This document shows positions 33,553 to 49,200 of a stretch of DNA of 64,000 nucleotides, in pieces. The translations under genes were made by a program, and so were the position numbers. Position 1 is the stretch's first letter. Each line of letters begins with the position of its first letter. The stretch is taken from contig CAWFQK010000004.1 of the NCBI GenBank assembly GCA_963817955.1, positions 576,001-640,000 on the forward strand, written 5' to 3'. The stretch is from an uncultured Gemmatimonadaceae bacterium (lineage in GTDB: Bacteria > Gemmatimonadota > Gemmatimonadetes > Gemmatimonadales > Gemmatimonadaceae). The notes under the pieces were generated by a model. The model was not told where the DNA came from and made no database searches. It saw only the letters and a program-made list of their open reading frames with translations.

Positions 33553-33637
33553 CACAGTCTTAACCTCCCAGACGTTGAACTGCTGCACCCCAACATGAAC
33601 GCTCGAGTTCGCGATTTTGACAACCAAATGTTCAAAA

Positions 33638-33711: not shown

Positions 33712-33731
33712 GGGGGGTGACCTCTCTGCAT

Positions 33732-33902
33732 TTACTTCAAGATTGCAAGCGGTACGAGCACGCAGTAACCGACGGCCAGCAGGATTGGGGCAATCGTTTC
33801 GCCCCCCCGCGCCAAGTCGGCGAATCCAGCGATGATGACGACCAGCGCAATTCCCCACCACATCAAGCCTCGTGTACGAGGCGACGTCTCGATCTCTGCC
33901 AT
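33732..33902 (-). CDS. Small two-TM membrane protein (56 aa), possibly DUF3098-like
   Basis: MAEIETSPRTRGLMWWGIALVVIIAGFADLARGGETIAPILLAVGYCVLVPLAILK, preceded by a strong promoter. Confidence 0.7.
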   Translation of the reverse strand: MAEIETSPRTRGLMWWGIALVVIIAGFADLARGGETIAPILLAVGYCVLVPLAILK

Positions 33903-33911
33903 AGGGAATAT

Positions 33912-33940
33912 AGTGTAGACCGTCCGGGAAAACCTGTCAA
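33912..33940 (-). promoter_or_regulatory. Near-consensus sigma70 promoter
   Basis: TTGACA-N17-TACACT on the minus strand, 9 nt upstream of ATG 33902. Confidence 0.75.
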
Positions 33941-34004
33941 GCAATGTGCTGAAGCGAAGTTACACCGTCATGATCGCTAGATTAGTTCACGATTAAAATG
34001 CCAG

Positions 34005-35108
34005 TCACTCGGGCATTTGGTCCCTTCCCGCGGACGGGTCGTCCCCCCGCAAGAGTGCCTCGATCGCGCTTTCCCGGGCTGCGCGCTCAGCCACTTCATC
34101 CGCGACGCGCATTGCCGCCAGACGCTGCCGATCTCGCTGCCGACGCGCAATATAGAATGGCACGATCAGAACGAGCAGCAACAGACCGCCAATTGCCACG
34201 TTACTCACCAGGGCGAGCGCGCCGTACCGCCGCCGCGTATCGGCCCTCCAACGCGTCTCGAATCCGCTGAGCGTGAGCCCATACGTCGCGCGCATTGCGC
34301 GATCGAGGTCGCCTTCTCGCCGCCACGATTCGAAGAACCGTGACAACCCGCCATCGGGATCGAGCGACGCCAGTTCGACCACCGCGCGGTACGCGAGGGC
34401 ATACGCGTTCTCCGCCGTCGTGGAGCCACCGTTGAGCTGTACATCGAGCTCAGCGAACGTCGGCGACCCGCGCAACGCCAGCGCAATGTTCGCCGCCAGT
34501 GCATCCTCGCGACGCCATTCGCGCGCGGCATAGCTCGCGTAACCTTCATCGAACCAGCGTGGCGGCTGATCGCCGAGGTATTCGTGCAGCGCGAGGTGTG
34601 CGAGTTCGTGTCGGAAGACCTCGCTTGGATCGCCGGCATCCGCGCCGGCGCCGCGGCCCTGCATCACGATACGTCGCGAGTCGGGGAAGGTGATCGCCGC
34701 GCCCCATTCCGGGGCTTCGGGCCCCGCCCATTCGCGGAAACGGCGCGCATCGGGCGCGATCGCCAGCAGCACGTGTTCATGTGGCCGCGGCAGCCCGGGA
34801 AACGTATCGGTGCGCTGCGCCTGCTCGAGCAGCGACGTCGCCAGCACAGCTTCCGTGGGATAGAAGACGGCCGTGAACCGCCCACGATCGATGCGTTTGG
34901 GGGCATCGGCTTGGGACACGGCGCACGAAACACGGGACACGGGAAAAAGCAGCAGGAGTGTTGCGACCGTCGCAGCCAGCCACCGCGTGACGCACGACCT
35001 GCGGAGCAGGTGCCCTACGGTTCGCCCCCCGCCTCCACGGTCTTCAGAACCTCCGCGCACCGTTTTCCCCACGGGGTGAACTTGTTCGCCGCGAAACCGG
35101 CTCGCCAT
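34005..35108 (-). CDS. Peptidase MA-like (gluzincin) membrane protein; true start uncertain, probably near 35010
   Basis: FRHELAH (HExxH) and PRWFDEG, an N-terminal hydrophobic stretch and a C-terminal TM. Confidence 0.8.
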   Translation of the reverse strand: MASRFRGEQVHPVGKTVRGGSEDRGGGGRTVGHLLRRSCVTRWLAATVATLLLLFPVSRVSCAVSQADAPKRIDRGRFTAVFYPTEAVLATSLLEQAQRTDTFPGLPRPHEHVLLAIAPDARRFREWAGPEAPEWGAAITFPDSRRIVMQGRGAGADAGDPSEVFRHELAHLALHEYLGDQPPRWFDEGYASYAAREWRREDALAANIALALRGSPTFAELDVQLNGGSTTAENAYALAYRAVVELASLDPDGGLSRFFESWRREGDLDRAMRATYGLTLSGFETRWRADTRRRYGALALVSNVAIGGLLLLVLIVPFYIARRQRDRQRLAAMRVADEVAERAARESAIEALLRGDDPSAGRDQMPE

Positions 35109-35875
35109 GTCTCGATTGCCTCGGCCCGCTGCCCGTTGAACCAGTACGCGCGACCGAGCTCATAGTACGCCTCGATCAAGTTCGGCCCGAGCGCCAGCGT
35201 CTTCTGGAAGAAGGTCTGTGCATCCTCGAACATGTCACGCTCGAGATACACCAACCCGAGATAGAAGTGCGCATACAGCAGTGCCTTCTTATCATTGCCC
35301 AGCCTGATGGCGCGTGACAGGTGCTCGATCGCTTCGCCGAATATGCCTTTCTTGAGACAGATGTAACCCACGTTGATGCGGGCGAGCGCATTCTGCGGCT
35401 CCCGCACGAGCACTTTCTGAAAATTGAGCAGTGCGTCGTCGAACTTGTCCTGCAGCATCTGCGCCCAGCCCAGCAGTGATTCCGCCTGCGGATCGTTCGG
35501 CGCAAGCTCCAGCGCCTTCATCAGGGCCTGCTCTGCGCCGGCATGGTCGCCGAGCGAAATCTTGCTCCATCCCTTCTCAATGAACGTCGAGGCGCCAATG
35601 TGGTCGGCGTGCACCACGGGCTTTTCACCAATGAACGCGGGCGCGAGCGATGGCTGCGCGCCTTTCACGCCTTTCACGCTTTTCCACGTCTCGACGAGCT
35701 GCAGCACTTCTGCTTTGAGCACGACGAGATCCGTGAGCTCCTGCTCGACGCTCTTGAACAGCACGCCGATATCGGTCTTCAGCGCACTGAGGTCGGCTGC
35801 GGCGGCAGGTGAGGCGAGGCGGACGCGGAGCTCGTCACGGCGCACCCGCAGGGCATCCACCAGCCGCTCAGCCAC
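35015..35875 (-). CDS. Coiled-coil plus TPR protein
   Basis: GTG start overlaps the cheW stop. N-terminal helical segment followed by ~5 TPRs (LGWAQMLQDKFDDALLNFQKVLVREP etc.). Confidence 0.85.
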   Translation of the reverse strand: MAERLVDALRVRRDELRVRLASPAAAADLSALKTDIGVLFKSVEQELTDLVVLKAEVLQLVETWKSVKGVKGAQPSLAPAFIGEKPVVHADHIGASTFIEKGWSKISLGDHAGAEQALMKALELAPNDPQAESLLGWAQMLQDKFDDALLNFQKVLVREPQNALARINVGYICLKKGIFGEAIEHLSRAIRLGNDKKALLYAHFYLGLVYLERDMFEDAQTFFQKTLALGPNLIEAYYELGRAYWFNGQRAEAIETWRAGFAANKFTPWGKRCAEVLKTVEAGGEP

Positions 35876-36353
35876 GAACAGTAACCTCGGCGGCTCGCAC
35901 GGTGCGCTCGAAGACGATGCGATCGGCGGTGGACAGCACACGGTCAACGTCGAGAATCACCACGAGCTGGTCGCCCGTTTTCACGATGCCGCGAACGAAC
36001 TCGGAAGCAAGGCCGCGGAAGAGAGCCGGCGGCGGCGAGACGCTCGTCGCTGGCACCGCGGCCACTTCCAGCACGGCATCGACGATCGCACCGACGCAGC
36101 CATCCGCGGTGTTCAGGACCAGGATGCGCGTGGAGGACGTGACCGGCGTCTCGGGCAGCTCCATGCGTCGACGCATATCGACGGCAGGGATCACCGCGCC
36201 ACGGTGCTCGAACACGCCTGCGATCCACGCAGGCAGATCGGGCACGTTGCTTGGCGCTGCGTAGCGCAGCACCCGATCCACCGCAAAGATGTCGGCGGCG
36301 AACCGGTCCAGCCCCAAGCGGAAGGTGACGAGCTTCACGACGTCGGTCTTCAT
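35868..36353 (-). CDS. cheW: Chemotaxis coupling protein CheW
   Basis: LVTFRLG, GVFEHRGAVIPAVDMRRR, GAIVDAV and LVVILDVDRV. Confidence 0.92.
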   Translation of the reverse strand: MKTDVVKLVTFRLGLDRFAADIFAVDRVLRYAAPSNVPDLPAWIAGVFEHRGAVIPAVDMRRRMELPETPVTSSTRILVLNTADGCVGAIVDAVLEVAAVPATSVSPPPALFRGLASEFVRGIVKTGDQLVVILDVDRVLSTADRIVFERTVRAAEVTVRG

Positions 36354-36811
36354 GCGATCTCTCCTGGCCCTTCACCCGTCAAAACGGACACGGCCGCCAC
36401 CGCCAGCAACGCGTCCGCGTTGAGCACCGCGATCAATTCTGCTCCACGACGGACGACGCCCGCCAGCATTCCATCCGACGACTGATTGCCCGGCACGGCG
36501 AGCAGCTCCCGGGCCTCGACAGTGATTGCGTCCTGCACATCGTCGACGGCGAAGCCGGCTCGCCGTTCATCGCGTGCGAATAGCAGCAGCACCCCATCCG
36601 CCCGTCCGCCGACGTTCAGGAGCGACCGGGGGTCATATATGGTGACCAGCGCGCCGCGAATAGCCGCGATACCGAGGACCGATGGCGGCGCGTCGGGGAC
36701 AGGATGCATCGCCGGCAAGTCCATCACTTCTTCCACGGATGCCAACTCGACGGCAAAGCGCTCGCGTCCCAATCGAAAGACGAGAAGCCGCGCCGCACCG
36801 TCACGGAACAT
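36350..36811 (-). CDS. cheW: CheW-domain protein (divergent)
   Basis: LLVFRLGRERFA, VPDAPPSVLGIAAIRG and GFAVDDV. Start at ATG 36811. Confidence 0.85.
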   Translation of the reverse strand: MFRDGAARLLVFRLGRERFAVELASVEEVMDLPAMHPVPDAPPSVLGIAAIRGALVTIYDPRSLLNVGGRADGVLLLFARDERRAGFAVDDVQDAITVEARELLAVPGNQSSDGMLAGVVRRGAELIAVLNADALLAVAAVSVLTGEGPGEIA

Positions 36812-37868
36812 GCCGCAGCGCCTCCACCATCTCGCTGATGACCGGGGCGATCTCGTGCAGCGGGGCGACGCGATCGGCGCCCGCATGCTGCAGCGCCATC
36901 TGCGGCATGCCGAAAATCGTCGCGGTGGCGCGATCCTGCACGATAGCCCGGCCTCCGGCTTCGCGGATCAAACGGGTCCCTTCGCTGCCGTCTCGCCCCA
37001 TGCCAGTGAGCACGACGGCCACCGTCGCCGCACCAAACACCTCCGCCGCAGAGCGGAACAATCGGTCGGCTGCGGGACGCACGCCCCAGATCGATGGCGA
37101 TGTATCGAGCACGATCGTCGGACCATCGGGGTCGCCGCGCACCCGCATGTGGTAGCCGCCGGGCGCCAAATAGACGTTGCCATGCACAACGGGCTCGCCG
37201 TCCTCGGCCTCGTGGATCCGGATCGGACTCAAGGTATCGAGCCGCTGGGCGAGACTCTTCGTGAACCCAGCCGGCATGTGTTGCACGATGAGCACCGCCG
37301 CGGGGAGTTCGCGCGGCAGATGGGGCATGATCGCCGCGAGCGCGCGCGGTCCGCCAGTCGATGACGCGATGACCACTGCGTGCGACGCGCGCGTGAGCGG
37401 ATCGATGCGCCGGACGCCCTCCAGCGAGGAACGCGCCGGCGTCTTCAGGCCGGCGAGGTTCGCCGCCGCCGCGCCGCGCAATGCGGCCACGAGACGATCG
37501 GCAATGAGTCCCACATCGAGGCTGATCGAGCCCGACGGCTTGAGCACGAAGTCCACCGCGCCCAGTTCGAGCGCCTTGAGCGTCGCCTCCTGCCCGCTGC
37601 GTGTCGTTCCGGCACTCAGCATGACCACCGCGCGCGGCGTTTCGCTCATGATATAGCCAAGCGCACTCAAACCGTCGAGTTCCGGCATGTCCACGTCGAG
37701 CGTGACAATATCTGGATCGAGCTCGTGAATCCGCTTGAGCGCGTCGAATCCGTTCCGCGCCGTACCCGCCACCACGAACTCTCCCGAGTCATCGACGATC
37801 TGCGAGGTCATGCGGCGCATGAACGCGCTATCGTCCACGACGAGGACACGCGGCTTGTCAGAGGACAC
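36801..37868 (-). CDS. cheB: Methylesterase CheB (REC plus CheB domain)
   Basis: VLVVDDSAFMR and TLDVDMP. Catalytic triad motifs SSTGGP, VQHMP and LTGMGRDG are intact. GTG start at 37868. Confidence 0.96.
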   Translation of the reverse strand: MSSDKPRVLVVDDSAFMRRMTSQIVDDSGEFVVAGTARNGFDALKRIHELDPDIVTLDVDMPELDGLSALGYIMSETPRAVVMLSAGTTRSGQEATLKALELGAVDFVLKPSGSISLDVGLIADRLVAALRGAAAANLAGLKTPARSSLEGVRRIDPLTRASHAVVIASSTGGPRALAAIMPHLPRELPAAVLIVQHMPAGFTKSLAQRLDTLSPIRIHEAEDGEPVVHGNVYLAPGGYHMRVRGDPDGPTIVLDTSPSIWGVRPAADRLFRSAAEVFGAATVAVVLTGMGRDGSEGTRLIREAGGRAIVQDRATATIFGMPQMALQHAGADRVAPLHEIAPVISEMVEALRHVP

Positions 37869-38349
37869 GCGATCCCCCGCGCAGCGAGCGCACTTCCACG
37901 CGGCCATCCGCTAGAAAGAGGTACACGCTGCGGCCGTAGTCGCTCCCGGTGTCCTCGGCCACGATCGGCAGGTTGGCGCCGGCGAGCACTTCGCGCACCG
38001 CAGTGACGTTCCGTTCCCCAATGTTCATGCCGCCCGCCGGAAGGACGTTGCCAAACATACTCGCGCCGCCGGCGATTCTCGCTCGAATGCGCCCGAGGCT
38101 GGCGCCGAGGTCCCGCATCTCGGCGAGCACCAGCGGAACCACCGTCTGTGGAAATTTCGCCGGATTGGATCGATCGCGCGACATGCTCTCGCTTGGCAGC
38201 AGCACGTGAGCCAGGGCGCCAACGCGCGCCACGGCGTCGTACAGAACAATCGCCACGCACGATCCGAGGCCGATCGTCGAGATCGTCCCGTCGGCGGCGA
38301 CGGCATAGTCGGCGACCTTCACGCGCCGCTCGACGGGAATGGCCGTCAT
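37858..38349 (-). CDS. cheD: Chemoreceptor glutamine deamidase CheD
   Basis: TIGLGSCVAIVLYD, AHVLLP, AGGASMF, IGERN and EDTG. Confidence 0.93.
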   Translation of the reverse strand: MTAIPVERRVKVADYAVAADGTISTIGLGSCVAIVLYDAVARVGALAHVLLPSESMSRDRSNPAKFPQTVVPLVLAEMRDLGASLGRIRARIAGGASMFGNVLPAGGMNIGERNVTAVREVLAGANLPIVAEDTGSDYGRSVYLFLADGRVEVRSLRGGSRVL

Positions 38350-39167
38350 AGGCGCCGAAAGATTCGTTGCCGCGCATCGACGGGCGCGAAGTGGGTGCGC
38401 GCACGTCCGAGCAGGGTCTCGACCTTGCCGAGCACGAGGAATCCGTCCGGCGCCAGCGCGTCGTAGAAAGTATTGAACAGCCGCTCCTGCGTATCCCGGT
38501 CGAAGTAAATCAACACGTTTCGGCACACGATGAGGTCATGCGGCCCCGGCGGCGGCGGCTCGCTGAGCAGATCGCGTCGCTCGAACCGCACCATGCTGCG
38601 AATGGCTGAGGATACGGCGAAGGGCGACGCGACCGCGAAGTACTCCTGTCGCAGATCGCCAGGCGTGTCGTCGAAGTCGCCTGGCTCGAATTGTCCGCGC
38701 CCAGCCGCGGCGAGACATTGCTGGTCGATGTCGGTTCCCACCACCCGCACGCGCCCAATCCGGGCGAGCGAATCGTTGAGGGCCGCGTACCGATGAAACA
38801 GAATGGCGAGCGAATACGGCTCGTCTCCCGACGAGCACCCCGCGCTCCACACGCGAATCGCCGGCTGCTCGCGGCGCCAGAGCGCGGGCACCACGTGCTC
38901 CGCCATCGCCGCGTAGGCATCCCAGTTTCGAAAGAGTTTCGTGACATTGATCGTCAACGCATCGAGCAGCCGGTCGTATTCTGCGGCGTCCCGATCGAGG
39001 AGTCGCGCGTACTCGTCGTAGGTGTGCACACCGCGCGCGCGCATGCGCACGGCAATCCGCCGGCGCAGACACTTCTCCTTGTACGACGCACAGCCGAAGC
39101 CGCGCTCCGCGGAGATCTTGTGCGTCAACTCCAAGAACCCAGCCTGCTCCTGCTCCTGCTCCGGCAT
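38346..39167 (-). CDS. cheR: Methyltransferase CheR
   Basis: LTINVTKLFRN, WSAGCSSGDEPYS, GTDID and CRNVLIYF. Confidence 0.95.
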   Translation of the reverse strand: MPEQEQEQAGFLELTHKISAERGFGCASYKEKCLRRRIAVRMRARGVHTYDEYARLLDRDAAEYDRLLDALTINVTKLFRNWDAYAAMAEHVVPALWRREQPAIRVWSAGCSSGDEPYSLAILFHRYAALNDSLARIGRVRVVGTDIDQQCLAAAGRGQFEPGDFDDTPGDLRQEYFAVASPFAVSSAIRSMVRFERRDLLSEPPPPGPHDLIVCRNVLIYFDRDTQERLFNTFYDALAPDGFLVLGKVETLLGRARTHFAPVDARQRIFRRL

Positions 39168-40786
39168 CAATACACCTGCCGAATCGATTCCAGATTCGTA
39201 CGCACGATTGCGTTGTTCGGATCGAGCTCGAGCGCCCGCTCCCAGCAGCGTAGCGCTTCATCGCGCTCCCGCCGCCGCAGGCGAATGTTGCCGAGCTTGA
39301 GATAGACGTCGGCCCCGAGATCCGGGTCCGCCTTCGTCGCGCGCAGGTACGACTCGAGGGCGTCGTCGTACCGGCCGCCGCGGTAGTGCAGGTCGCCCAG
39401 GTTCTTGTGGAGCTGCGGCATGCCGGGATCCTCATGGAGGCCGCGTTCGATGGTCTCACGCGCATTGTCGTAGGCCGTGCTGCGTTCGAGCGCCGCGGCG
39501 AGGTTGTTCCAGAGCGCCGCGACGTGCGGATGGGCCGACACGCCCTCTGTCAGCACGATGGCGGCGCGCGACGTGTCTCCGGCGAGCGCGGCCGCAAGCC
39601 CCATGTAGTGGTACCACGCCGCAGTCGGCGGACGGGTGCCGAACAGCGTCCGCGCCGACGCGAGCAGCGCGTCGGCCTCCGCGACATCGCCCGTCATGAG
39701 CGTCACCACACCGAGCGACGTCTGCACGCGCGGATCGGCCGAACCACCGCGCCGCGCGGCCTCCTCGAGCGCTGCACGCGCTTCCTCGTATCGATTGAGC
39801 CGCTCCAGCGCGTAGGCCAGGTTGTGGAACACCGCCATGTGCGCGCCCGGTTGCGCCGCCGCCTCGGAGAATGTGGCGGCCGCGTCTTCCCACTTCTGCT
39901 GGCGGGCCAGCACGAGACCGATGTAGAACCGCGCCACCGCGTCGAATCCGCGCAGATCGAGCACACGCCGGAATTCCCGCAACGCCTCATCGAGCATATT
40001 GGTCTTGTAGAACGCGATCCCGAGGTTGCGGTGTTCCTCGATGCGCCCTTCCGACGGCGCGGGAGCCGGCGGCGCCGTCTTGCCAATGCGATGGATGAAC
40101 CCCGTGGTGAGCAGGCCGTACAACGCCTTCCCGACCTCGAACTCCACGAGGCCTGACTCGTCGATGATTGCTTGCACGTCGCGCGTGCCGTCGACCAACT
40201 CGAGCACGGCACGCTGCTCGTCGGTGAGCGCTGTTTCGCTCGATAGGACCTTGGCGCGATCTATCTCGAAGACAATGTCGAACGTCGGAATCTTCTTCTC
40301 GACGAGACCCCACTCATCGACTCGCCGGGCACCCTCGAGCAGCAGCGACTCCGGATTGATCGATACGACATGGTCATGCTGATCCGGCGCGACGTCAGCC
40401 TCGAAATTGAATGTCCCCTGGTTCCAGGTGAACAGGAAGTACACCGCTTCCTGAATCTGCACATGGATGGCGTCGTGCAACTGCTGCAGACTGAGCGCGC
40501 CCTGCTCCACCAGCAACTCGCCAAGCCGCTTGTCGCGCCGGCGATCCTGCAGCGCCACACTGGCCTCCAACCGCGCCTGCGTGACGATGCCGCTCTTCAC
40601 CAGCATGTCGCCGAGTCGATCGCGCCGGTTCACGATGGAGGCGTAGCAGATGCGGCCCTTTTCGAAATAGACGTACCCAAAGCTGTTCCGGTGCGTGACG
40701 CTCAGGCACCCCGTCTTCTTCCCCATCGCCAGAAGCTGGAGAACGTCGGGAAGGCTCGCTTCCTTGAGGCTGCCGCGGATGGCCAT
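39167..40786 (-). CDS. DUF4388 (PATAN-like) protein with a tandem MshEN-type motif and a C-terminal TPR array
   Basis: GSLKEASLPDVLQLL...KTGCL...YFEKG...WNQGTFNF...LLLEGARRVDEW, two RLG..L...G motifs, then ~8 TPRs. ATG 40786 overlaps the upstream stop. Confidence 0.85.
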   Translation of the reverse strand: MAIRGSLKEASLPDVLQLLAMGKKTGCLSVTHRNSFGYVYFEKGRICYASIVNRRDRLGDMLVKSGIVTQARLEASVALQDRRRDKRLGELLVEQGALSLQQLHDAIHVQIQEAVYFLFTWNQGTFNFEADVAPDQHDHVVSINPESLLLEGARRVDEWGLVEKKIPTFDIVFEIDRAKVLSSETALTDEQRAVLELVDGTRDVQAIIDESGLVEFEVGKALYGLLTTGFIHRIGKTAPPAPAPSEGRIEEHRNLGIAFYKTNMLDEALREFRRVLDLRGFDAVARFYIGLVLARQQKWEDAAATFSEAAAQPGAHMAVFHNLAYALERLNRYEEARAALEEAARRGGSADPRVQTSLGVVTLMTGDVAEADALLASARTLFGTRPPTAAWYHYMGLAAALAGDTSRAAIVLTEGVSAHPHVAALWNNLAAALERSTAYDNARETIERGLHEDPGMPQLHKNLGDLHYRGGRYDDALESYLRATKADPDLGADVYLKLGNIRLRRRERDEALRCWERALELDPNNAIVRTNLESIRQVY

Positions 40787-42726
40787 CAGCGCAGATCCTC
40801 GATCAGGCGCGTGCCGGCGTCGGGCCACTGCCACAGAATCTTTTCGCCGTCGAGAAAGAACGTGTCGGCCGTCGTGCGCATTGCCGCGGCACGGGGCGCG
40901 TCGCCCTGCTCCGGTTCGAGCTCGGCACGAATGAACCCGATCGTCACCGGCACGGCCTTCACTTCGGCCGAGGCGACGATCCGGTTCGCGGCACCGATGA
41001 TCTCGCGCACGCTGGCAACCGGTCGGTCGGCAAGATAGTTCAGCATCTCGCCGGTGGGGTCGAGTCCCAGGTCCTTGAGGAATCGCGCAAAGAGCCGCTC
41101 GCGCAGCGACCGGTCGGGCGACTGCATCGGTACGACCAGGCCGCCCTCGAACCGCGAGCGCAGTCGTTCCTCGAGGCCCGACAACTCGCGTGGCGGTCGA
41201 TCGCTGGCGAAGACGAGCTGCTTGCCGTCGGCATACAGCGCGTTGAATACGTGAAACAGCTCTTCCTGCGTGCGTTCCTTGCCGGCCACGAACTGCACGT
41301 CATCGAGCAACAGCGCCGAGGCAGCGCGATATCGCGCCCGCCAACGATCCACTGTTCCCTCCTGCATCGCGGCGATCAGTTCGTCGATGAACAGCTGGGC
41401 GGGCACGCAGGCGACACTGCCGGTGCCCGCCGACGCTTGCACGAGTCCATTGCCGATCGCATTGAGGAGGTGGGTCTTGCCCACCCCGCTCGGCCCGTGA
41501 ATGAACAACGGATTGTACCGGAGTGCCGGGACGGCGACGATGGCGTCGGCGGCCCGCACGGCAAGCTGATTGCACGCCGCCACTTCGAATCCGGCGCGCG
41601 TGAAGGCGGCCGACGGTCCCGGCGGCGGCGTCGACGTGCGAAGCGCACGCTCGAGCAGTTGCCCGGCCTCCTCGAGCCGATCCGGGTCGTGAAAAGCATC
41701 GTGCTCGGCCAACGCGCGGTCGAGACCTGCCACCTGCTTTTCGAGATCACGCAGCTTCGAGACGCTTCCTTCGAATTCGCGCAGCACCGTCTCGACGCTC
41801 GTCGGCGGCGCAGGATCCTGGAGCATGCGTTCGAGCGCAGCGGCGCGATACCCCTCGCTGTTCCAGTAGGCGATCGCCTCCGTCAGGCGGGTTCTCCACT
41901 GCTCGAGATGCTGTGCGACGGCCGCCGACATATTCGAGAGGAAATTCGCGAACTCTCCGAGCGCCTGCGGTGGATTGGCGCGCGGGCGCTGCTCGGCGAG
42001 GTCGCCGAGGATGCCAATGACCGCGCCGGGGTCGATCTGTTCGCCGCCGAGCGTCTGGAACGCGATGATCCGATTGAGCGCGCCCTGCAGCTCGCGCACG
42101 TTCTTGAATTCCAGACGTCCCACTTCCTCGATGACGCCGGGCCGGAAGCGGACCCCGCGCTCCTCGCACTTGGCCTTGAGAATAGCCATGCGCGTTTCAT
42201 AATCGGGTGCCCCCATGTCGACGATCAGACCACCCGACAGCCGCGTGATCAGCCGCTCGTCCACGTCGCTGATCTCCGACGGCGGCCGGTCGCTGGTCAT
42301 CACGATCTGCTTGCCGGCGGCGGTGAGCGCGTTGAAGATGCGCAGCAACTGCGTCTGCGTCTCGCGATGGCCGGTCAAGAACTGCACGTCGTCGATCAGC
42401 AGCACGCCGATGCCGACATACCGGTTCTTGAACGGTTCTGCCTCGCCGGCCGCGATCGCCTCGTGCAACTCCGCCACGAAGTCGTCGAGCGTGACGAACG
42501 CGACGAGCAGTCCCGTGTGGCGCTGTGTCACGTGATTGCCGATCGCGCTCATCAGGTGCGTCTTGCCGAGCCCCGAACTGCTGTACATGAACAGCGGGTT
42601 GTACACGGCGCCCGGCGCGTCCGCCACCGCGCGCGCCGCGGCCACAGCGAGCCCGTTGGCCGAGCCGACGATGAAATTATCAAACCGGAGCTTCAGGTCT
42701 ACCGGCACGCGACGATTCCTCTCCAC
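40786..42726 (-). CDS. Tandem DnaA/Hda-family AAA+ ATPase lacking DnaA domains I and IV
   Basis: Two copies of the DnaA domain III signature. First: YNPLFMYSSSGLGKTHL, LLIDDVQF, SDRPP, RLITRLSGGL, NVRELQGA. Second: YNPLFIHGPSGVGKTHL, LLLDDVQF, SDRPP, RLRSRFEGGL, SVREIIGA. Confidence 0.9.
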   Translation of the reverse strand: MERNRRVPVDLKLRFDNFIVGSANGLAVAAARAVADAPGAVYNPLFMYSSSGLGKTHLMSAIGNHVTQRHTGLLVAFVTLDDFVAELHEAIAAGEAEPFKNRYVGIGVLLIDDVQFLTGHRETQTQLLRIFNALTAAGKQIVMTSDRPPSEISDVDERLITRLSGGLIVDMGAPDYETRMAILKAKCEERGVRFRPGVIEEVGRLEFKNVRELQGALNRIIAFQTLGGEQIDPGAVIGILGDLAEQRPRANPPQALGEFANFLSNMSAAVAQHLEQWRTRLTEAIAYWNSEGYRAAALERMLQDPAPPTSVETVLREFEGSVSKLRDLEKQVAGLDRALAEHDAFHDPDRLEEAGQLLERALRTSTPPPGPSAAFTRAGFEVAACNQLAVRAADAIVAVPALRYNPLFIHGPSGVGKTHLLNAIGNGLVQASAGTGSVACVPAQLFIDELIAAMQEGTVDRWRARYRAASALLLDDVQFVAGKERTQEELFHVFNALYADGKQLVFASDRPPRELSGLEERLRSRFEGGLVVPMQSPDRSLRERLFARFLKDLGLDPTGEMLNYLADRPVASVREIIGAANRIVASAEVKAVPVTIGFIRAELEPEQGDAPRAAAMRTTADTFFLDGEKILWQWPDAGTRLIEDLR

Positions 42727-42730
42727 GTCG

Positions 42731-43336
42731 CTAGGGCGCCGCGCCCGCGCCCGCGCTCAGACGCTTGAGCACGAGCTCCGAGATCGAGCGGAGTGTCTCG
42801 AAGACCCCGGGGCCGTGCAGGGCGTCGGCGCCAAAGTCCGGGACGCCTCGAAAATTCAGGGCGTCCGATAGCTCGGGGACGCCAAGGATGAGATCGGCCG
42901 GCAAGTCCTGCTTGTTGTACTGGAGCACGAGCGGTACGGTGCGCGCATCGATCCCCTGCTCGGCGAGATTTGCGTGCAGGTCCTGAAGGCTCTCGATGTT
43001 CTCCTCCACCTGCCGCGCCTGACTGTCGGCCACGAACACCACGCCATCTGCGCCCTGCAGCACGAGCTTGCGAGTCGTCTGATAGTAGACCTGGCCCGGC
43101 ACCGTGTAGAGCTGGAACTTGGTCGTGAATCCGGAGATGGTTCCGAGGTCCAGCGGCAGGAAGTCGAAGAACAGCGTCCGGTCGGTCTGCGTCGCGAGCG
43201 ACACCATCTTGCCTTTGCGATCGTCCGGGACCTGCCCATAGATGTAGTGCAAATTCGTCGTCTTTCCGGACCGGCCCGGCCCGTAGTAGACAATCTTGCA
43301 CGTGATCTCGCGGGTGGCGTAGTTGACGAGAGACAA
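42731..43336 (-). CDS. mglA: MglA-family small GTPase
   Basis: KIVYYGPGRSGKTTNL (G1), DRTLFFDFLP, YTVPGQVYY (G3), ADGVVFVADS and YNKQDL (G4), closely following the Myxococcus MglA pattern. Confidence 0.93.
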   Translation of the reverse strand: MSLVNYATREITCKIVYYGPGRSGKTTNLHYIYGQVPDDRKGKMVSLATQTDRTLFFDFLPLDLGTISGFTTKFQLYTVPGQVYYQTTRKLVLQGADGVVFVADSQARQVEENIESLQDLHANLAEQGIDARTVPLVLQYNKQDLPADLILGVPELSDALNFRGVPDFGADALHGPGVFETLRSISELVLKRLSAGAGAAP

Positions 43337-43355
43337 GGGTGTCGAGCGGCAAGGG

Positions 43356-43826
43356 TTAGCGACCGAACATCGAAGCGAGGTTGCGATGCAGCTCAGTTTC
43401 GAAGTTCACGTCGAACATGGGTTCGCGAAGAAGCGGAAGCGGCGGCGCGGCAGCGGCCAGATCGCGGCACAACTCGTCGAAGAACAGACGCACCAGGCCG
43501 AGCGAACTTGCCTGGTCAAAGACGGTAAGACAAATGTAGGCACCGCGGCACGTATCCACCGGCGCGAGATAGAGTTGCTTCTCCAAGCCTTCGTGGTGCA
43601 AGCCGTGAAATGGACGTCCATCCAGCTGCCGGCCAAGCTCCCCCGCGGTTGCGTGCACTGCCGATGCGAGCGCACACGCGGTCATGACGTCCACAGCACG
43701 CGTAAAGCCCGCCTGCGCCACCACTTGACCTGACGGGTGCAGGAGCAGCGCGAGACGCGCGCGCGCCTCGTCGACGAACCGCTTGAGCGGCGGTTCGACC
43801 CACGGCTCGACCGTGGCGATGATCAC
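43356..43826 (-). CDS. MglB-like Roadblock/LC7 protein
   Basis: CALASAVHATAGELGRQL...FHGLHHEG...TVFDQASSLGLVRL, the MglB pattern, directly upstream of mglA. Confidence 0.8.
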   Translation of the reverse strand: MIIATVEPWVEPPLKRFVDEARARLALLLHPSGQVVAQAGFTRAVDVMTACALASAVHATAGELGRQLDGRPFHGLHHEGLEKQLYLAPVDTCRGAYICLTVFDQASSLGLVRLFFDELCRDLAAAAPPLPLLREPMFDVNFETELHRNLASMFGR

Positions 43827-44173
43827 GGAAGAAACTCCAGCGCCTTCAGCAGTTCCACGCGAATCAAACCCACGTTGGCCGCAGCCTCAGCCACGACGAC
43901 GATGACGAGGTCACTGCGCCCGGTACCCGCAGCGCAGATCCGTCCCCGCTCGGCGTCGAGCTGGAGAAAGCCGACAGATCCGAGCCGCGCCGCGTTCGCC
44001 GACAACCGCGCCTTGCGGTAAATCGACGCCGCCAACGCCGCAACGCGGTCGCCATCCTGACCGAAGCGCAGGTTGGCGTCCACTACGAGACCGTCACTCT
44101 GCGAGACGATCAAGCTGGCTCGTACGCCACGGAGACGGGTCAGCGATTCGAGCAGATCAGCAAAGGGACTCAT
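43823..44173 (-). CDS. Roadblock/LC7 domain protein
   Basis: GVRASLIVSQSDGLVV...VAALAAS...NVGLIRVEL. Confidence 0.85.
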   Translation of the reverse strand: MSPFADLLESLTRLRGVRASLIVSQSDGLVVDANLRFGQDGDRVAALAASIYRKARLSANAARLGSVGFLQLDAERGRICAAGTGRSDLVIVVVAEAAANVGLIRVELLKALEFLP

Positions 44174-45012
44174 GCGCTCCCTCCCACTCCCCCTCCCCCT
44201 CCCCCGCCGTCGCCCTGGCCCTGCCGCAGCCAGTCAGACGCCCGTTCGACGCACCGATTGAGCAGCCGCCGCAGGAGGCCCAATGGCGTGGCATGCGAGG
44301 CAGCGACAACGACGAGGCTGTGACCCATTGCCGGCGCCATGGCGACCACGGCAGCCTGCGTTTCGAACACGATTGACCGCCATTCGCCAATGTCGAGATG
44401 CCGCGTGGCCCGTAGCACCTCGTCGGAAATGCCGCTCAGTTGTGCACCGATCTCCTGCGCAAGATCGTTTCCTTCCGAATCGGGGTACGACCCACCGACC
44501 ACGTAGCCGCTGACGTCGAGCAGCAAGGCCGTCTGTCCCTGATCAACTAGCACATCCAGGAACAGCATTTGGGGGTCGGTTGCCGGGGGTGCCTCGACCA
44601 CGGGCGCCGGCGCACTGCCGGACGACCGCCGCACCATTTGCAGCGCAGCGGCTACGTCTCCGCCGCCGGCGGCCGCCGCCCGAATGAGATACTGTTCTGC
44701 GTCATCGAAACGGTGTTGTTGAAAACAGACGAAGCCGAGGCCCTTCATGGCGCCAACGTGGCTTGGCACAAGGCGGAGGACCGTCTGCCATTCCTCTGAC
44801 GCGCGCGCAAGGTCGTGGCGATCCACCGCGATTCGCGCTACCAGGTCGTGCGCCTCGGCGTTCGCCGGATGGCGCTCCAATCCGCGGAGCGCGATTTTGA
44901 GCGCGATTTCCACTTGACCCTGGCGGCGCAGGGCCTCGCTGAGCCGGAGGAATACCAGGCTCGATGGCTCGCGTGCCAGCTCGTCGCTCCACCCGTGGAC
45001 GTCGTCAGCCAT
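44170..45012 (-). CDS. TPR plus Roadblock/LC7 fusion protein
   Basis: N-terminal TPRs (LSEALRRQGQVEIA...HP), then ALLLDVSG...IGAQLSGISDE...TPLGLLRR Roadblock-like domain. Start at ATG 45012. Confidence 0.78.
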   Translation of the reverse strand: MADDVHGWSDELAREPSSLVFLRLSEALRRQGQVEIALKIALRGLERHPANAEAHDLVARIAVDRHDLARASEEWQTVLRLVPSHVGAMKGLGFVCFQQHRFDDAEQYLIRAAAAGGGDVAAALQMVRRSSGSAPAPVVEAPPATDPQMLFLDVLVDQGQTALLLDVSGYVVGGSYPDSEGNDLAQEIGAQLSGISDEVLRATRHLDIGEWRSIVFETQAAVVAMAPAMGHSLVVVAASHATPLGLLRRLLNRCVERASDWLRQGQGDGGGGGGGVGGSA

Positions 45013-45841
45013 CGGCGTGCGTCTCCAACACGCGCTGCAGCCGCGCGAGGGCATCGAGCGCATCCCGCGCTTCCGGCGAGCCCGGACCGTTCGGCGAGGC
45101 GCGGAGGAACTGTTCCACTGCCGTGCGTGCACTCGCCAACGCGCCGGTGACCATGCGCGCGGCCGACGTGAACATCGGCGTTTTCGGTGCGGGTTGCGCC
45201 GACTCCGGCAGGGCACGAGACGGGCAGCGCACGTCAACGATGCCAGTCGTCGCCAGACCGTAGGCGATCTTCGCAATCTCGAATTCGTCGCGGCCGAGCG
45301 CCGTGGCAATCGTGCGCACGTCACGCTCGCCGTCGATCATCGTCAGCACCTGCCATTCGTGCGGCAGCAAATCGAGCATGGCGCCCTGCCGGTCATGATC
45401 GACCTCCGCCAGTTCGGGGACGGCATCGACGTTCGGCACCACGTCGGCGATGCGCGACCATTCGTCAATGCGCCGAGCAGCCTCCATGAGGAGCGATTCC
45501 GTGGACACGGTGATCCCCGTGTTGGCCGGCATGTCGCTGCGCGCCCGTTCTTCGAACGAGAAGAAGCCTTCCCGCCAGGACATCAACTCGAACACGACGC
45601 TCTCCAGCTGCAAGCGCAGCTGCCGCTCCAGCTCCTTCCGCGAAATGGCGCCGGGTTCCGTGTGGGGGGGGGCTTTGCTGCGAATCGTCGCCTGAACCAC
45701 GCGTCCGCTGTCGAAATGCACCACGCCCTCGTCCTCGCGCAACGCAGAGTACACGCGGAGCATCCCCGTCTTCCGGCTCAGGTCGAGGAGCTGGAACACG
45801 TCGTGAATGCCGAGTTCGCGAAGGGGACCTTCAATGGCCAT
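45005..45841 (-). CDS. DUF4388 protein
   Basis: AIEGPLRELGIHDVFQLL...KTGML...HFDSG...WREGFFSF...LLMEAARRIDEW...VLTMIDG. Start at ATG 45841. Confidence 0.85.
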   Translation of the reverse strand: MAIEGPLRELGIHDVFQLLDLSRKTGMLRVYSALREDEGVVHFDSGRVVQATIRSKAPPHTEPGAISRKELERQLRLQLESVVFELMSWREGFFSFEERARSDMPANTGITVSTESLLMEAARRIDEWSRIADVVPNVDAVPELAEVDHDRQGAMLDLLPHEWQVLTMIDGERDVRTIATALGRDEFEIAKIAYGLATTGIVDVRCPSRALPESAQPAPKTPMFTSAARMVTGALASARTAVEQFLRASPNGPGSPEARDALDALARLQRVLETHADG

Positions 45842-45846
45842 GGGCG

Positions 45847-48540
45847 CTAGTCCTTCCGTCGCGGACCGAGGATGCGTTCCAGATCCGTCACCGTCCGGAT
45901 CTCCCGGCGCGCGCGACGCGCCCACTCCGACGTCGGCCCTAACTCCACGACGCGTTGCCACCGCTCGACCGCGCCGCGGTATCGGCGCTGTTCCGCCAGG
46001 ATGCTGCCTTCATGGAACAGCGCGCCGATATGCGACGGGTCGAAGCGCAGGACGCGAGCGAACGCCTGCACGGCATCGCGTTTGCGCCCGAGCGCGAGCA
46101 GAGTTTCCCCGAGTGCGATCAGCGCATCGAAGTGATAGGGATCGCGCTGCAGCAAATCGATCAGCTGCTCCAGCGCTTCAGCGGGGCGTCCAAGGCGCCG
46201 CCGCAACGTCGCGAGCTCCAGTGTCGCCTCGGCATACGTCGGTACGGCGTCGAGCGCGGCGACCAGCTCCTGTTCGGCTTCGCGGTTCTGCCCCTTTGCC
46301 TGTAACAAGCGCGCGAGCTGGAAACGCACCACCGCGAAATCCTGGTCGAGTTGCAGCGCATGGCGATATGCCGAGATCGCGCCTTCGTTATCGCCGAGGG
46401 ATCGGGCAATGTCGCCCATCTTCTGCTGCACGTCGGCGCGCATGGGCGCGGCGCGCCGCGCCGCATCGAGCACCGACAGCGCCGCCGCGGGATCGCCTGC
46501 TTCCGCGCAGGTGGTCGCCATGAGCATGAGCACATCCACGTCATCGGGACAATGGGTGAGCAGCTGCTGGGCGAGGGGACGGGCCTCCGCGGCGCGTCCG
46601 AGGCGGACGAGTGACGAGGCTTCCCCGATCGCGGCAGCGCGCCTTTCGGGTTCGAGCCGTAAGGCTTCGCGATACCGCTCGAGGGCCTCGCCGAACAGCC
46701 CTTGCTTGGCAAAGACGTCTCCAAGGAGCGTGAGCCCGTCGGCGCGCGCACCTCCGCGAGACATGGCGCGGCTGATCTCGGCCGAGGCGCGGTCGTACAA
46801 TCCTTTGGACAGGTAATCCGCCGCCATCGCGAACGGCGACGCATCCGTGCCGCGCGACGGCGTCACCGGCGACGGAAAGGCGACCGGCCTCAGCTCGGTG
46901 AAGAGCGTGTCGAGCGACTGGGCGTCGAAGCTGAAATCGGCGATCGACGCGTCGGCCAACCGCTCGCCGCCGAAATCCGGTCGAATCGAGAGGTCGGGGT
47001 CCTCGTACTCGACGTCCATGGCCAACTCGAACTTCTGCGGGACGTAATAGGGATCGAGCTCCAGCGCACGCTTGGTTTCGCGTAACGCGCCTTCAAAGTC
47101 ACCGAGGTTCGAGAGCGTGAAGCTCATGTTGTAGTGTGCTTCCGCAACGTCCGGCTTCGACTGGATCGACCGCGCGAACGCGTTCCGCGCATCATCGTAC
47201 TTGTGCAGCTCCGAGAGGACGAGCCCAATGCCGTTCCACGCGACGTGCTGTTCCGGCGCGTTCGTCAGCGCCCGGCGGTACGCATCGAGCGCGGCGGGAA
47301 ATCGTTTGCCGCGTGCAAGGAGGAGCGCCATGTTGAGGTGCGCCTTGACAAAGCTGGGCTGTTCGTCGAGCGCGGTGCGGAAGGCGCCGATGGCCTCGTC
47401 CACCGCACCGCGGTGATACAGCACGACGCCCAGGTTGTTGTGCGCAATGGCGTAGGTGGGCTCGGCCTGCAGGGCGTTCCGGTAGCTGGCCTCCGCGTCG
47501 GGGAAGCACCCATCCTGGTGCAGCGCCACGCCGCGCTCGTTCCACAGCTTGGGACTCGACGGCTGCCGCTCCAGCAACTCGTTGTACAGCGCGAGCGCCT
47601 CGTTCGGCTGTCGCATGAGCAGATGCATCTCGGCCATGGCCTGCAACACGAGATCGCGCTCCTCGCCCCGTTCCAGCGCGACACGGTATTCGCGCATCGC
47701 CTCGGGGAAATACCCGTTGCTGCGGAACGCGAGACCGAGATTGTAGCGCGCGAGTTGGCCTTCGCCCGACACCTGGAGCTCGCGCCTGGCTGGCGCGGGC
47801 CCATCCTCCGGTCGCGCCGCCCGCTGTTGGTCGATCGCCAAATTCGCGTGGGCGCGCGACAACGTGGGATTGAGCGCAATGGCGCGGCGGGTCACGGCCT
47901 GCGCGTCTTCATGCCGTCCCATGTCGCCCAGGACGAACCCCATCAGGTAGAGCGCGTCGTGGTTCTCGGGATTGCGCTCGATCGCCCGTTCCAGGGCCCG
48001 TAGTGCTTCGTCGTTCAGTCCGCGATGATAGAGCACTTCACCGAGCGAGAACTGCAGCAACGAGCTGTCGGAGTCGAGCGTGAGCGCGCGCTCGAGCAGC
48101 TGCTGCGCGCGTTCGATGTCGCCAGTCTCCTTCTCGGCCATCGCGAGCTGCAAGAGCGCGCCGACATCCGACGGGGTGACCTGCAGCAGCGCGCGGAATT
48201 CCTCCGCCGCATCGTCCTGCTGGCCGAGCAGCGCATAGGTGCGACCGAGCTCCCAGCGCGCATCACGATCCTCGGGGCGCAGCCGGAGGCGCTCTTTGAG
48301 TTCCGGAATACGAGTATCGTAATAGCCCGTGTTGAAGTAGGCGATTTCGAGATTCCGTTGCGCGACCTGCATCTTCTGGTCGAGGTCCAGCGCCTTCATG
48401 AACGCGGCGACGGCCTCCCCGTACAGCCCCTTGTTGTAGTACAGCACCCCCAGATTGTTGTGCGCCCCGGCATCCGACGGATCGATCCGCCGGGCAAACG
48501 AACGTAAGACGTCGCGATCGCGTTCCGAGGTGAGTGCCAC
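45847..48540 (-). CDS. Large TPR-repeat protein (897 aa)
   Basis: Many canonical TPRs (AHNNLGVLYYNKG, AHNNLGVVLYHRG, AHYNMSFTLSNLG) and no signal peptide. Confidence 0.9.
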   Translation of the reverse strand: MALTSERDRDVLRSFARRIDPSDAGAHNNLGVLYYNKGLYGEAVAAFMKALDLDQKMQVAQRNLEIAYFNTGYYDTRIPELKERLRLRPEDRDARWELGRTYALLGQQDDAAEEFRALLQVTPSDVGALLQLAMAEKETGDIERAQQLLERALTLDSDSSLLQFSLGEVLYHRGLNDEALRALERAIERNPENHDALYLMGFVLGDMGRHEDAQAVTRRAIALNPTLSRAHANLAIDQQRAARPEDGPAPARRELQVSGEGQLARYNLGLAFRSNGYFPEAMREYRVALERGEERDLVLQAMAEMHLLMRQPNEALALYNELLERQPSSPKLWNERGVALHQDGCFPDAEASYRNALQAEPTYAIAHNNLGVVLYHRGAVDEAIGAFRTALDEQPSFVKAHLNMALLLARGKRFPAALDAYRRALTNAPEQHVAWNGIGLVLSELHKYDDARNAFARSIQSKPDVAEAHYNMSFTLSNLGDFEGALRETKRALELDPYYVPQKFELAMDVEYEDPDLSIRPDFGGERLADASIADFSFDAQSLDTLFTELRPVAFPSPVTPSRGTDASPFAMAADYLSKGLYDRASAEISRAMSRGGARADGLTLLGDVFAKQGLFGEALERYREALRLEPERRAAAIGEASSLVRLGRAAEARPLAQQLLTHCPDDVDVLMLMATTCAEAGDPAAALSVLDAARRAAPMRADVQQKMGDIARSLGDNEGAISAYRHALQLDQDFAVVRFQLARLLQAKGQNREAEQELVAALDAVPTYAEATLELATLRRRLGRPAEALEQLIDLLQRDPYHFDALIALGETLLALGRKRDAVQAFARVLRFDPSHIGALFHEGSILAEQRRYRGAVERWQRVVELGPTSEWARRARREIRTVTDLERILGPRRKD

Positions 48541-48576
48541 GGGTGAATGCTGGGTACGGGTCGCCGGGGCGAACGA

Positions 48577-49194: not shown

Positions 49195-49200
49195 GGTTCC

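Follow-up and report, generated by a model that had tools for sequence, protein, structure and literature searches.

A tandem DnaA-type AAA+ ATPase encoded in an MglA/MglB-PATAN-Che gene cluster of Gemmatimonadota, and its possible role as an ATP-gated switch or scaffold

Introduction

Why would a gene cluster for polarity and chemosensory signalling encode a protein built from two copies of the ATPase domain of the replication initiator DnaA? The question is raised by a stretch of 64,000 nucleotides (the window, meaning the whole stretch that was analysed) from an uncultured Gemmatimonadaceae bacterium (GenBank assembly GCA_963817955.1, contig CAWFQK010000004.1, positions 576,001 to 640,000). 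On its minus strand, a gene at 40786..42726 encodes a DnaA-type AAA+ protein of 646 residues, here called the tandem ATPase, between mglA, the gene for a Ras-like GTPase, and a gene for a protein with PATAN and tetratricopeptide repeat (TPR) domains. DnaA domain III is known for the initiation and control of replication, in DnaA itself, in Hda and in DnaC-type loaders. An initial annotation, made from the sequence alone, described the protein as a repurposed tandem of domain III and offered two roles for it, either capping or co-assembling with DnaA filaments or acting as an independent ATP switch or scaffold. The second of these is favoured by the gene context and by the predicted docking of the protein's C-terminal tail into a TPR groove of its neighbour, and we place at about one half the probability that the tandem ATPase serves an MglA/MglB-PATAN-Che module for polarity or motility as a switch or scaffold gated by ATP. 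The protein is no initiator of replication. Outside subscription journals, the literature yielded no description of the family, and the passages searched in a survey of prokaryotic small GTPases describe PATAN neighbours of MglA and mention no AAA+ or DnaA-like partner (PMC4316618).

Domain Architecture

The tandem ATPase starts with a GTG at 42726, separated by 4 nt from the TAG stop codon of mglA (42731-42733), as the initial annotation had it, and an alternative in-frame GTG at codon 7 gives the 640-residue form that is held in the protein database. Pfam matches Bac_DnaA (PF00308) in two stretches of the protein (E = 3.2e-105), and TIGR00362, the NCBIfam model for DnaA, is likewise matched twice, over profile positions 102-346 of 437 only, that is, over domain III. 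Neither Bac_DnaA_C (PF08299), the helix-turn-helix of domain IV, nor DnaA_N (PF11638), which is domain I, was found by Pfam at E <= 0.01, and module 1 begins at residue 8; two domain III modules without domains I and IV, and this very set of Pfam matches, had been anticipated. Compared with the DnaA of the same genome, module 1 has 41% and module 2 39% identity; between the modules the figure is 42%. The top Foldseek matches are DnaA domain III (8bv3_A, template modelling (TM) score 0.93 by target, root-mean-square deviation (rmsd) 1.8). In the AlphaFold2 model (mean predicted local distance difference test score (pLDDT) 87.6), both AAA+ modules and the helices of the linker between them have high confidence, while residues 244-265 and 607-646 are disordered.

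Four parts can be delimited along the minus strand. Module 1 covers residues 8-243 (41998..42705; from Pfam, alignment and family conservation), the linker residues 244-385 (41572..41997, about 140 residues; from alignments and models), module 2 residues 386-606 (40909..41571; from alignment and residue mapping), and the C-terminal tail residues 607-646 (40789..40908; pLDDT below 50 when modelled alone, with a conserved peptide). The nucleotide-binding motifs that the initial annotation listed are all in place in both modules: Walker A as SSSGLGKT at 49-56 and GPSGVGKT at 411-418, Walker B as DDVQF at 112 (D112, D113) and 475 (D475, D476), sensor I as SDRPP at 145 (its Asp being D146) and 508, box VII as RLITRL at 158 (R158, R162) and RLRSRF at 521 (R521, R525), and sensor II as NVREL at 209 (R211) and SVREI at 572 (R574).

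The linker, which had also been expected to be helical, consists of a flexible segment (residues 244-265), a three-helix bundle (266-364) predicted with high confidence, and a Pro-rich LPxPS stretch (P371). Along it, conserved motifs stand out when 25 or 39 members are aligned, namely DEFxxFL, W277-R278, G292 (in EG[YF]R), L298, FRDPD (D347, P348) and LPxPS. Modelled alone it again forms a three-helix bundle (pLDDT 93.7, predicted TM score (pTM) 0.78). Foldseek found no relatives of this fold at E <= 0.001, and the best VIA-align match (Z 6.1, to EzrA spectrin-like repeats and other three-helix bundles) lies below the level that is meaningful for helical bundles. No helix-turn-helix fold turned up in the fold searches, which is no proof of absence, and no Pfam family exceeded its cut-off in any of 39 linkers. 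ABC_tran_CTD matched 19 of the 39 below its cut-off (best E = 2.9e-4); these matches were taken as coiled-coil-like composition and set aside. Overall, no DNA-binding domain was detected in the tandem ATPase by these domain and fold searches, and the notion of a repurposed domain III tandem without a recognisable DNA-binding domain is thus far supported.

The tail carries a peptide of the form E628 K629 x x W x W634 P635 D ... R640 L I E643 [ED] x R-COOH, which in the window protein ends E643 D L R; it can also be written EK-x-V-W-x-W-P...R-L-I-E-E. Among 116 distinct two-module proteins used for all residue counts below (the window protein and 115 from loci L007-L129), the motif is present in 100, and the other 16 have gaps there. 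Its columns are invariant in the 39-member alignment, and the peptide is unique in the whole genome. The initial annotation had missed this conserved C-terminal peptide.

The gene has no dnaN or oriC context, in agreement with that annotation, sitting as it does between mglA and the PATAN-TPR gene. A canonical dnaA of 462 residues, with rnpA upstream and dnaN downstream, lies on another contig (C3), elsewhere in the genome as had been expected. The only other weak Bac_DnaA matches in the genome fall in two genes for 273-residue IstB-like (IS21 helper) ATPases (G000:C4:1382147-1382452 and G000:C1:550882-551187).

The Downstream PATAN-TPR Partner

The last base of the tandem ATPase's TGA stop codon is also the first base of the ATG that starts the following gene, an overlap that had been noticed from the start. 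This gene (39167..40786, minus strand) encodes a protein of 539 residues, counted from the ATG at 40786, with PATAN (DUF4388) and TPR domains by Pfam. Gene order was compared at 94 loci (L036-L129) from several families of the phylum, with the loci that had enough sequence as denominators. The PATAN-TPR gene stands directly downstream of the tandem ATPase at 76 of 78 loci, and one of the two misses (L046) is a script artefact, the gene being there. mglA lies within 400 nt upstream at 85/90 loci, so that two-module homologues do occur beside mglA in other genomes, as had been proposed. Two of the five mglA misses (L045, L048) are artefacts of the distance rule; the real ones are genomes of f4 and f7 (families of the phylum are numbered f1 to f12 here), in which the ATPase-PATAN-TPR pair alone is kept. 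Of 68 loci with both genes complete, 60 have an overlap of the ATPase stop with the partner's ATG, and at 67 the two genes lie no more than 4 nt apart. Judged by gene order, the constant partner of the tandem ATPase is the downstream PATAN-TPR gene rather than mglA, which the initial annotation had not recognised.

Of 401 genomes sampled from the phylum, 274 contain the linker (residues 245-400), taken as a marker of the ATPase, mostly in one copy; these tallies take in four unpublished genomes (G157, G182, G057, G097), and no claim is based on them alone. By family, the linker is present in 74/93 genomes of f1, 161/166 of f2, 5/5 of f3, 5/7 of f4, 2/2 of f5, 0/30 of f6, 22/70 of f7, 4/4 of f8, 0/4 of f9, 0/13 of f10, 0/3 of f11 and 0/3 of f12. 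The PATAN-TPR protein is present in 89/93 genomes of f1, 160/166 of f2, 5/5 of f3, 6/7 of f4, 2/2 of f5, 0/30 of f6, 22/70 of f7, 4/4 of f8 and 0/23 of f9-f12. The two patterns are equal in f3 and f5-f12 and one genome apart in f2 and f4; f1 differs. In f7, it is the identical 22 genomes that hold both.

The partner carries two MshEN-type cyclic di-GMP (c-di-GMP) motifs, RLGDMLV at residue 57 and RLGELLV at residue 87, in a helical insert of its PATAN domain, and with 45.7 bits it exceeds the cut-off (38) of NF053729, the NCBIfam model for a motif domain that binds c-di-GMP. The PATAN-TPR protein probably binds c-di-GMP, to judge by these motifs. A side observation is that PATAN proteins may be putative c-di-GMP receptors, through a helical insert such as residues 57-110 here; the second PATAN protein of the window (45005-45961) had no match to the c-di-GMP motif. 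In Synechocystis, PATAN is an output domain that binds PilB1 and PilC. The PilB/PilT/GspE family is matched eleven times in the genome studied here, and nine of these matches exceed the Pfam cut-off.

Predicted Tail Docking and Genera Without the ATPase

The tail of the ATPase is disordered and strongly conserved with an acidic hydrophobic end, the neighbouring gene encodes a TPR protein, and the two genes are translationally coupled; docking of the one protein on the other was therefore to be expected. The complex of the full PATAN-TPR protein with ATPase residues 250-646 was predicted from custom 39-row alignments for each chain, and the interaction prediction score from aligned errors (ipSAE) was 0.76 (0.75, 0.76 and 0.76 in the individual runs), compared with 0.00 for the best of three controls. 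The score mark was reached by 116 of 157 solved complexes and by 2 of 215 mismatched pairs, counts that hold only roughly here because custom alignments were used. Between runs, at least 77% of contacts are shared, and the pLDDT of the partner is 79 or higher. The confident interface consists only of the tail (residues 611, 614-615, 617-621, 623-632 and 634-645) against TPR groove residues 284-494, the tightest pairs being tail residues 628-631 with TPR residues 424-431, 458-465 and 490, and tail residues 640-642 with TPR residues 291-294, 318-325 and 353. Among the TPR contact residues, H321, N427, N462 and D465 show no variation, and conservation reaches at least 90% at N322 and K461. The predicted complex supports binding of the tail in the partner's TPR groove.

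Natural losses of the ATPase bear on the same interface. The linker was not found in four genera (g5, g10, g18, g21) of the window's own family, and in these ATPase-less genera (loci L160-L163; genomes G036, G072, G114, G168) mglA is followed directly by a shorter PATAN-TPR gene and then by cheR. All four short PATAN-TPR forms lack the last 60-75 residues of the TPR domain, and three of the four lack the helical insert that carries the c-di-GMP motifs. The contact residue R353, otherwise constant, is L, L, H or V in the four short forms, and K461 is R, R, R or A. Such a pattern of loss is what one expects if the TPR end serves to hold the ATPase tail.

Unequal Modules

The catalytic residues are distributed unevenly over the two modules. 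In module 1, the Walker A Lys is present in 115 of the 116 proteins, the two Walker B Asp residues in 115 and 109, the sensor I Asp in 107, the arginine finger (the second box VII Arg, equivalent to R162) in 102 and the sensor II Arg in 107, and the first P-loop Gly in only 36 (Ala in 58, Ser in 21). In module 2, the Walker A Lys is found in 113, both Walker B Asp residues in 110 each, the arginine finger (equivalent to R525) in 112, the sensor II Arg in 100 with a further 10 gaps, and the first P-loop Gly in 111; the sensor I Asp is found in 25 (Ala in 42), the window protein being among those that have it. By motif content, module 1 is the module with the full catalytic set, conserved family-wide, and the two modules are functionally unequal, module 2 being without sensor I in most members.

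The asymmetry is greatest in deep lineages of f4 and f7 (L044, L046, L047, P0157), where module 2 has no Walker A, no Walker B and little of its lid, which is replaced by an acidic low-complexity stretch. It keeps the arginine-finger box RLRSRFEGGLVV, and linker and tail are also kept. Module 2 of these lineages is a pseudo-ATPase, as read from its motifs. In one f8 genome (L045), module 2 is missing entirely, and the linker and tail are retained.

The ancestry of the modules was approached with a maximum-likelihood tree of 36 module-1, 33 module-2 and 36 DnaA domain III rows over 228 columns; excluded from it were modules whose match covered under 200 profile positions, frames with a single module, one partial DnaA and the genes of IstB type. 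In the unrooted tree, module 1 (support 100 in the Shimodaira-Hasegawa-like approximate likelihood ratio test), module 2 (89) and DnaA (86) are each set apart by a branch, and the module branches are several-fold longer than the DnaA branches of the same genomes. The initial annotation had proposed a phylogeny of the modules against DnaA and Hda; this tree, built from modules and DnaA rows with no Hda and no outgroup, is unrooted and silent on the donor and the order of events. The single split between modules fits one tandem duplication before the family diversified, although the tree is no proof of it.

Distribution

More than 120 homologues of 636-646 residues and 74-82% identity were retrieved by a word-indexed protein search, and where these have database names they read 'DnaA/Hda family protein [Gemmatimonadaceae]' or 'chromosomal replication initiator protein'. 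The latter name is misleading for the tandem ATPase. Dozens of full-length two-module proteins also occur among 50%-identity representatives, each aligning in one piece from residue 8 to 646, with identities as low as about 31%. In 123 loci (L007-L129), 119 frames have two modules and three have one. The independent origin of these assemblies, together with the conserved gene coupling, led to rejection of an assembly artefact or chance open reading frame, and in this respect the fusion has proved genuine, as first described. At one locus (L040, G127:C1:295800-315700), the tandem ATPase is split into two frames of 267 and 473 residues, and the PATAN-TPR gene is matched in two pieces, possibly through frameshifts or decay.

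A scan of 185,579 species, one genome per species, with linker-specific patterns taken from the most distant members returned 194 relatives, and of the best 80 of these 194, 78 are labelled Gemmatimonad*. The two other loci among the best 80 come from metagenome bins labelled Solirubrobacterales and Acidimicrobiia; the Solirubrobacterales locus lies on a contig of 4,070 bases whose length and match coordinates equal those of a contig from a Gemmatimonadales bin. Two-module clusters of the ESM Atlas, queried with a full-length homologue, are commonest in Gemmatimonadota. By the genome sample, the species scan and the ESM Atlas, the family is apparently restricted to this one phylum, and as far as the homologues retrieved here tell, it is real, old, diverse and single-copy. 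Three DNA sequencing runs of one study contain it in small shares, and no RNA run was listed. The ESM Atlas also holds an archaeal (Thermoplasmatota) cluster of proteins of about 650 residues with Bac_DnaA and DUF835, a possible other reuse of DnaA domain III outside replication.

Neighbouring Genes

The tandem ATPase lies in the middle of a minus-strand cluster. In its first half the order is CheW, CheA, CheC/X, TPR (897 aa), PATAN, TPR-Roadblock, Roadblock and MglB-like, and in its second half MglA, tandem ATPase, PATAN-TPR, CheR, CheD, CheB and two CheW; a TPR gene, a peptidase-MA-like gene, another TPR gene and the mraW-ftsI-murE division genes follow. Directly upstream, mglA (42731..43336) encodes a Ras-like GTPase (E = 1.9e-75 to Myxococcus xanthus MglA, 5ymx; Arf/Ras in Pfam), and the gene before it (43356..43826) an MglB-like Roadblock/LC7 protein (Robl_LC7 in Pfam; E = 3.3e-10 to M. 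xanthus MglB, 6h5b). An MglA GTPase with an adjacent Roadblock-type MglB is what identifies an MglA polarity module, and both are found here. They are preceded by a second Roadblock/LC7 protein (43823..44173; Pfam and sequence matches to Roadblock proteins in the PDB) and by a TPR protein with a weak C-terminal Roadblock match in Pfam (44170..45324). The orthologues of the latter match from residue ~90-100, and its real start probably lies downstream of the start of the longest reading frame, to go by these alignments. Further upstream, again assigned by Pfam, are the second PATAN (DUF4388) protein (45005..45961) and the large TPR protein of 897 residues (45847..48540).

Chemosensory genes flank this core on both sides, with a CheC/CheX phosphatase (48577-49194), CheA (49201-51273) and a CheW upstream of CheA (51539-51994) at one end, and CheR (38346-39170), CheD (37858-38526), CheB (36801-37907) and two CheW genes (36350-36886 and 35868-36353) at the other, all on the minus strand. 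The cluster from 35868 to 51994 was tallied as holding CheA, four CheW, CheR, CheB, CheD and CheC/X. In the synteny set, an MglB-like gene is nearby at 86/90 loci, the second Roadblock gene at 77/84, the large TPR gene at 63/67, CheR at 68/75 and CheB at 59/67; f7 loci are without mglA and che genes nearby. At 26202-31178 and 31813-35947 (minus strand), the cluster continues through the TPR, peptidase-MA-like and TPR genes into mraW/rsmH, an ftsI-type penicillin-binding protein gene and murE. Upstream of the cluster, two adjacent paralogues of lspA (signal peptidase II; 52971-53666 and 53519-54262, minus strand) stand beside an rluD-like gene and ileS.

Discussion

The tandem ATPase resembles several known systems in part. 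Like DnaA, it matches PF00308 and profile positions 102-346 of TIGR00362 in both modules, shares 39-41% identity with it, folds on Bacillus subtilis DnaA domain III and keeps Walker A, Walker B, the box VII arginines and sensor II. Unlike DnaA, it has two modules per chain, no domain I, no domain IV and no dnaN/oriC context, it adds a three-helix linker and a predicted C-terminal docking peptide, and it evolves much faster and is found, as it appears, in a single phylum. With Hda/HdaA it has in common that it is a DnaA-derived AAA+ protein without domain IV, and module 2 has a partial match to TIGR03420 (166 bits); however, this does not reach the cut-off of 194.8, the protein is a tandem and not single-module, and its context is one of polarity and chemosensory genes. 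The remaining Hda and HdaA models reach 42-67 bits, where their cut-offs demand 268-300. The beta-clamp-binding motif of Hda is N-terminal and of the QL[SD]LF type, and by inspection the N-terminus MERNRRVPVDLKLRFDNF contains no such motif. DnaC/IstB loaders share the AAA+ clade and give secondary Pfam and NCBIfam matches, but the tandem ATPase has no helicase-binding N-domain and no IS21 context, and the loader models stay far below their cut-offs (NF038214 98.8 vs. 200, DnaC 34.4 vs. 357, DnaI 55.9 vs. 228). Judged on these features, it fails the defining features of DnaA, Hda and IstB/DnaC, and its modules are nonetheless DnaA domain III. In type II (tandem-ring) AAA+ proteins such as p97, NSF and Rix7, two modules of the classic clade stack as hexameric rings; Foldseek aligned p97 and Rix7 over both modules (TM 0.23-0.29 by query, rmsd about 30 A), and by sequence the modules are of the DnaA type.

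Other resemblances concern how the protein might work. The C-terminal EEVD peptide of Hsp70 and Hsp90 docks into TPR domains, such as those of Hop and CHIP. The tail is like it in mode of action only, as a disordered acidic hydrophobic peptide (R-L-I-E-E-x-x-COOH) facing a predicted TPR groove with conserved Asn, Lys and Arg; it differs in its length of about 35 residues with a W-x-W-P element and in having no sequence relation to EEVD, and the docking here is predicted. The partner resembles cyanobacterial PatA-type regulators in its PATAN domain, the domain that binds PilB1 and PilC in Synechocystis, and differs from them in having no receiver domain, a TPR domain, and a PATAN insert with MshEN-type c-di-GMP motifs. 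As a whole, the cluster recalls the Frz-MglA/MglB-SgmX system of M. xanthus, with mglA, an MglB-like Roadblock protein, large TPR proteins and a full che set; the Myxococcus pathway has no DnaA-type ATPase, and the Gemmatimonadota cluster has PATAN proteins. In Myxococcus, MglA-GTP and the TPR protein SgmX are reported to act on type IV pili, and the Frz chemosensory system on MglA/MglB (PMC7519303, PMC7668184, PMC3441718).

Residues of the single-stranded DNA (ssDNA) motif and the filament interface of DnaA, and R245 of Escherichia coli DnaA, were taken from two reports (PMC6669920, PMC10325909), and equivalents were mapped by alignment to B. subtilis DnaA. Module 2 might bind ssDNA or RNA as DnaA domain III does, and so hold the PATAN-TPR/MglA machinery at the nucleoid or process DNA that enters via type IV pili. 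The residues of module 2 speak for this, including Arg at the R245 position in 101 of 116 proteins, as do the many PilB/PilT/GspE-type ATPases of the genome, but module 1 has His at the I190 position in 78/116 and Glu at the R245 position in 98/116, with Arg at the K222 position in 85/116; the genome's own DnaA has Ala at the R245 position, which is therefore not diagnostic. Deep lineages also drop much or all of module 2 yet retain the tail, and no domain for binding double-stranded DNA was found by Pfam or the fold searches. We consider this explanation unlikely, though it ranks first among the rivals. Alternatively, the tandem modules could co-assemble with ATP-DnaA filaments at oriC or cap them, as a covalent Hda-like or anti-filament factor that would couple initiation to polarity or chemosensory state. 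Both modules are indeed closest to DnaA among all families, and they keep the arginine fingers (102/116 and 112/116) and most of the equivalents of the AAA+/AAA+ interface residues (R202, L269, G317 and R321 of B. subtilis DnaA). Against such a role, the gene has no dnaN/oriC context and the canonical dnaA is on another contig, the Hda model stays below its cut-off, the module branches are several-fold longer than those of DnaA in the same genomes, and the nucleotide site of module 2 is lost in the deep lineages. Moreover, the presence of the gene tracks the PATAN-TPR protein and the polarity cluster, not DnaA, which was found in 41 of 41 genomes, including families without the tandem gene (the linker was found in 0/19 genomes of f10-f12). 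Neither capping of DnaA filaments nor co-assembly with them finds support in these data; a regulator of DnaA is improbable, and ranks third among the rivals.

Between these two in rank, and improbable as well, is an AAA+ remodeller or loader that would use ATP to load, disassemble or recycle the PATAN-TPR protein, MglA-MglB or a pilus motor complex, not as a static switch. Tethering to a partner by a flexible tail is typical of adaptor-guided AAA+ machines, and is predicted here; secondary matches to IstB_IS21 (E = 3.2e-21) and to DnaC/DnaI-type models point the same way. All IstB and DnaC models remain far below their cut-offs, however, likeness to the tandem-ring AAA+ proteins p97 and Rix7 is low, and AAA+ modules of the initiator clade form open spirals, not pore-threading rings. 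That the gene is a functionless, decaying duplicate or an artefact of assembly is very improbable: it has been lost in four genera of the same family, is split at L040 and evolves fast, but independent assemblies yield 119 intact two-module frames in 123 loci, members as distant as about 31% identity still share the catalytic residues, the linker motifs and the tail, and the coupling of stop and start codons is conserved.

Several points weigh against the reading of the tandem ATPase as an ATP-gated switch or scaffold. Nucleotide binding, oligomerisation and partner binding are all predictions. The relative placement of the two modules is not fixed in the AlphaFold2 model (pTM 0.48). The complex score is the model's own confidence, and part of it may reflect likeness to TPR-peptide complexes, which abound among solved structures. 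Equivalents of ssDNA contacts persist in module 2, with I or V at the I190 position in 104/116 (I in 92, V in 12) and K or R at the K222 position in 95/116 (K in 79, R in 16), so that a nucleic-acid role fits as well, and most filament-interface equivalents are kept in both modules, a retention that, on the alignment, would also allow co-assembly with DnaA. The window contains no gene for a methyl-accepting chemotaxis protein; elsewhere in the genome there are eight MCPsignal matches, seven of them above the Pfam cut-off. Finally, four lineages have no ATPase, and the ATPase is thus dispensable for the core function of the cluster.

With these points counted, a switch or scaffold role remains the best explanation, and it seems about an even matter that a DnaA-type AAA+ protein has here left replication for a place in an MglA/MglB-PATAN-TPR-Che signalling cluster, of a type that in Myxococcus governs polarity of the cell and movement on surfaces. 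In the mechanism that we propose, the ATPase would be tethered by its tail to the PATAN-TPR adaptor, which probably senses c-di-GMP through its MshEN-type motifs and whose target, if cyanobacterial PATAN domains are a guide, may be a type IV pilus motor. Binding and hydrolysis of ATP at module 1 could lead to a change of conformation or of head-to-tail assembly state, with module 2 serving mainly as an arginine finger donor or as a regulatory nucleotide site. Within one chain, module 2 may lend its arginine finger to the site of module 1, which would explain why the box is kept in deep lineages after module 2 lost its own site. Switching would then gate or multimerise the adaptor downstream of MglA and the Che pathway, so that MglA-GTP, c-di-GMP and Che signals might be integrated on an output, perhaps the pilus motor. 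The full picture, in which a DnaA-derived AAA+ protein is the ATP-gated hub of a Ras-like-GTPase polarity or motility pathway, tethered by an EEVD-like peptide to a c-di-GMP-sensing PATAN-TPR protein and with module 2 as arginine-finger donor for module 1, is put forward more tentatively than the general role.

What is new here is an architecture and a context for a known module, which has been duplicated, stripped of its DNA-reading domains and retained phylum-wide. The natural variants of the family, with a pseudo-ATPase module 2, a deletion of module 2, or loss of the gene along with a shortened partner, are ready comparisons. If the hub role is true, the DnaA fold would have its first known use in signalling rather than replication, and the tandem ATPase would be a new class of partner for MglA systems. 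It would add an ATPase, and probably a c-di-GMP input, to small-GTPase polarity systems, which have been studied mostly in Myxococcus, and would indicate that an initiator ATPase fold can be reused as a signalling switch.

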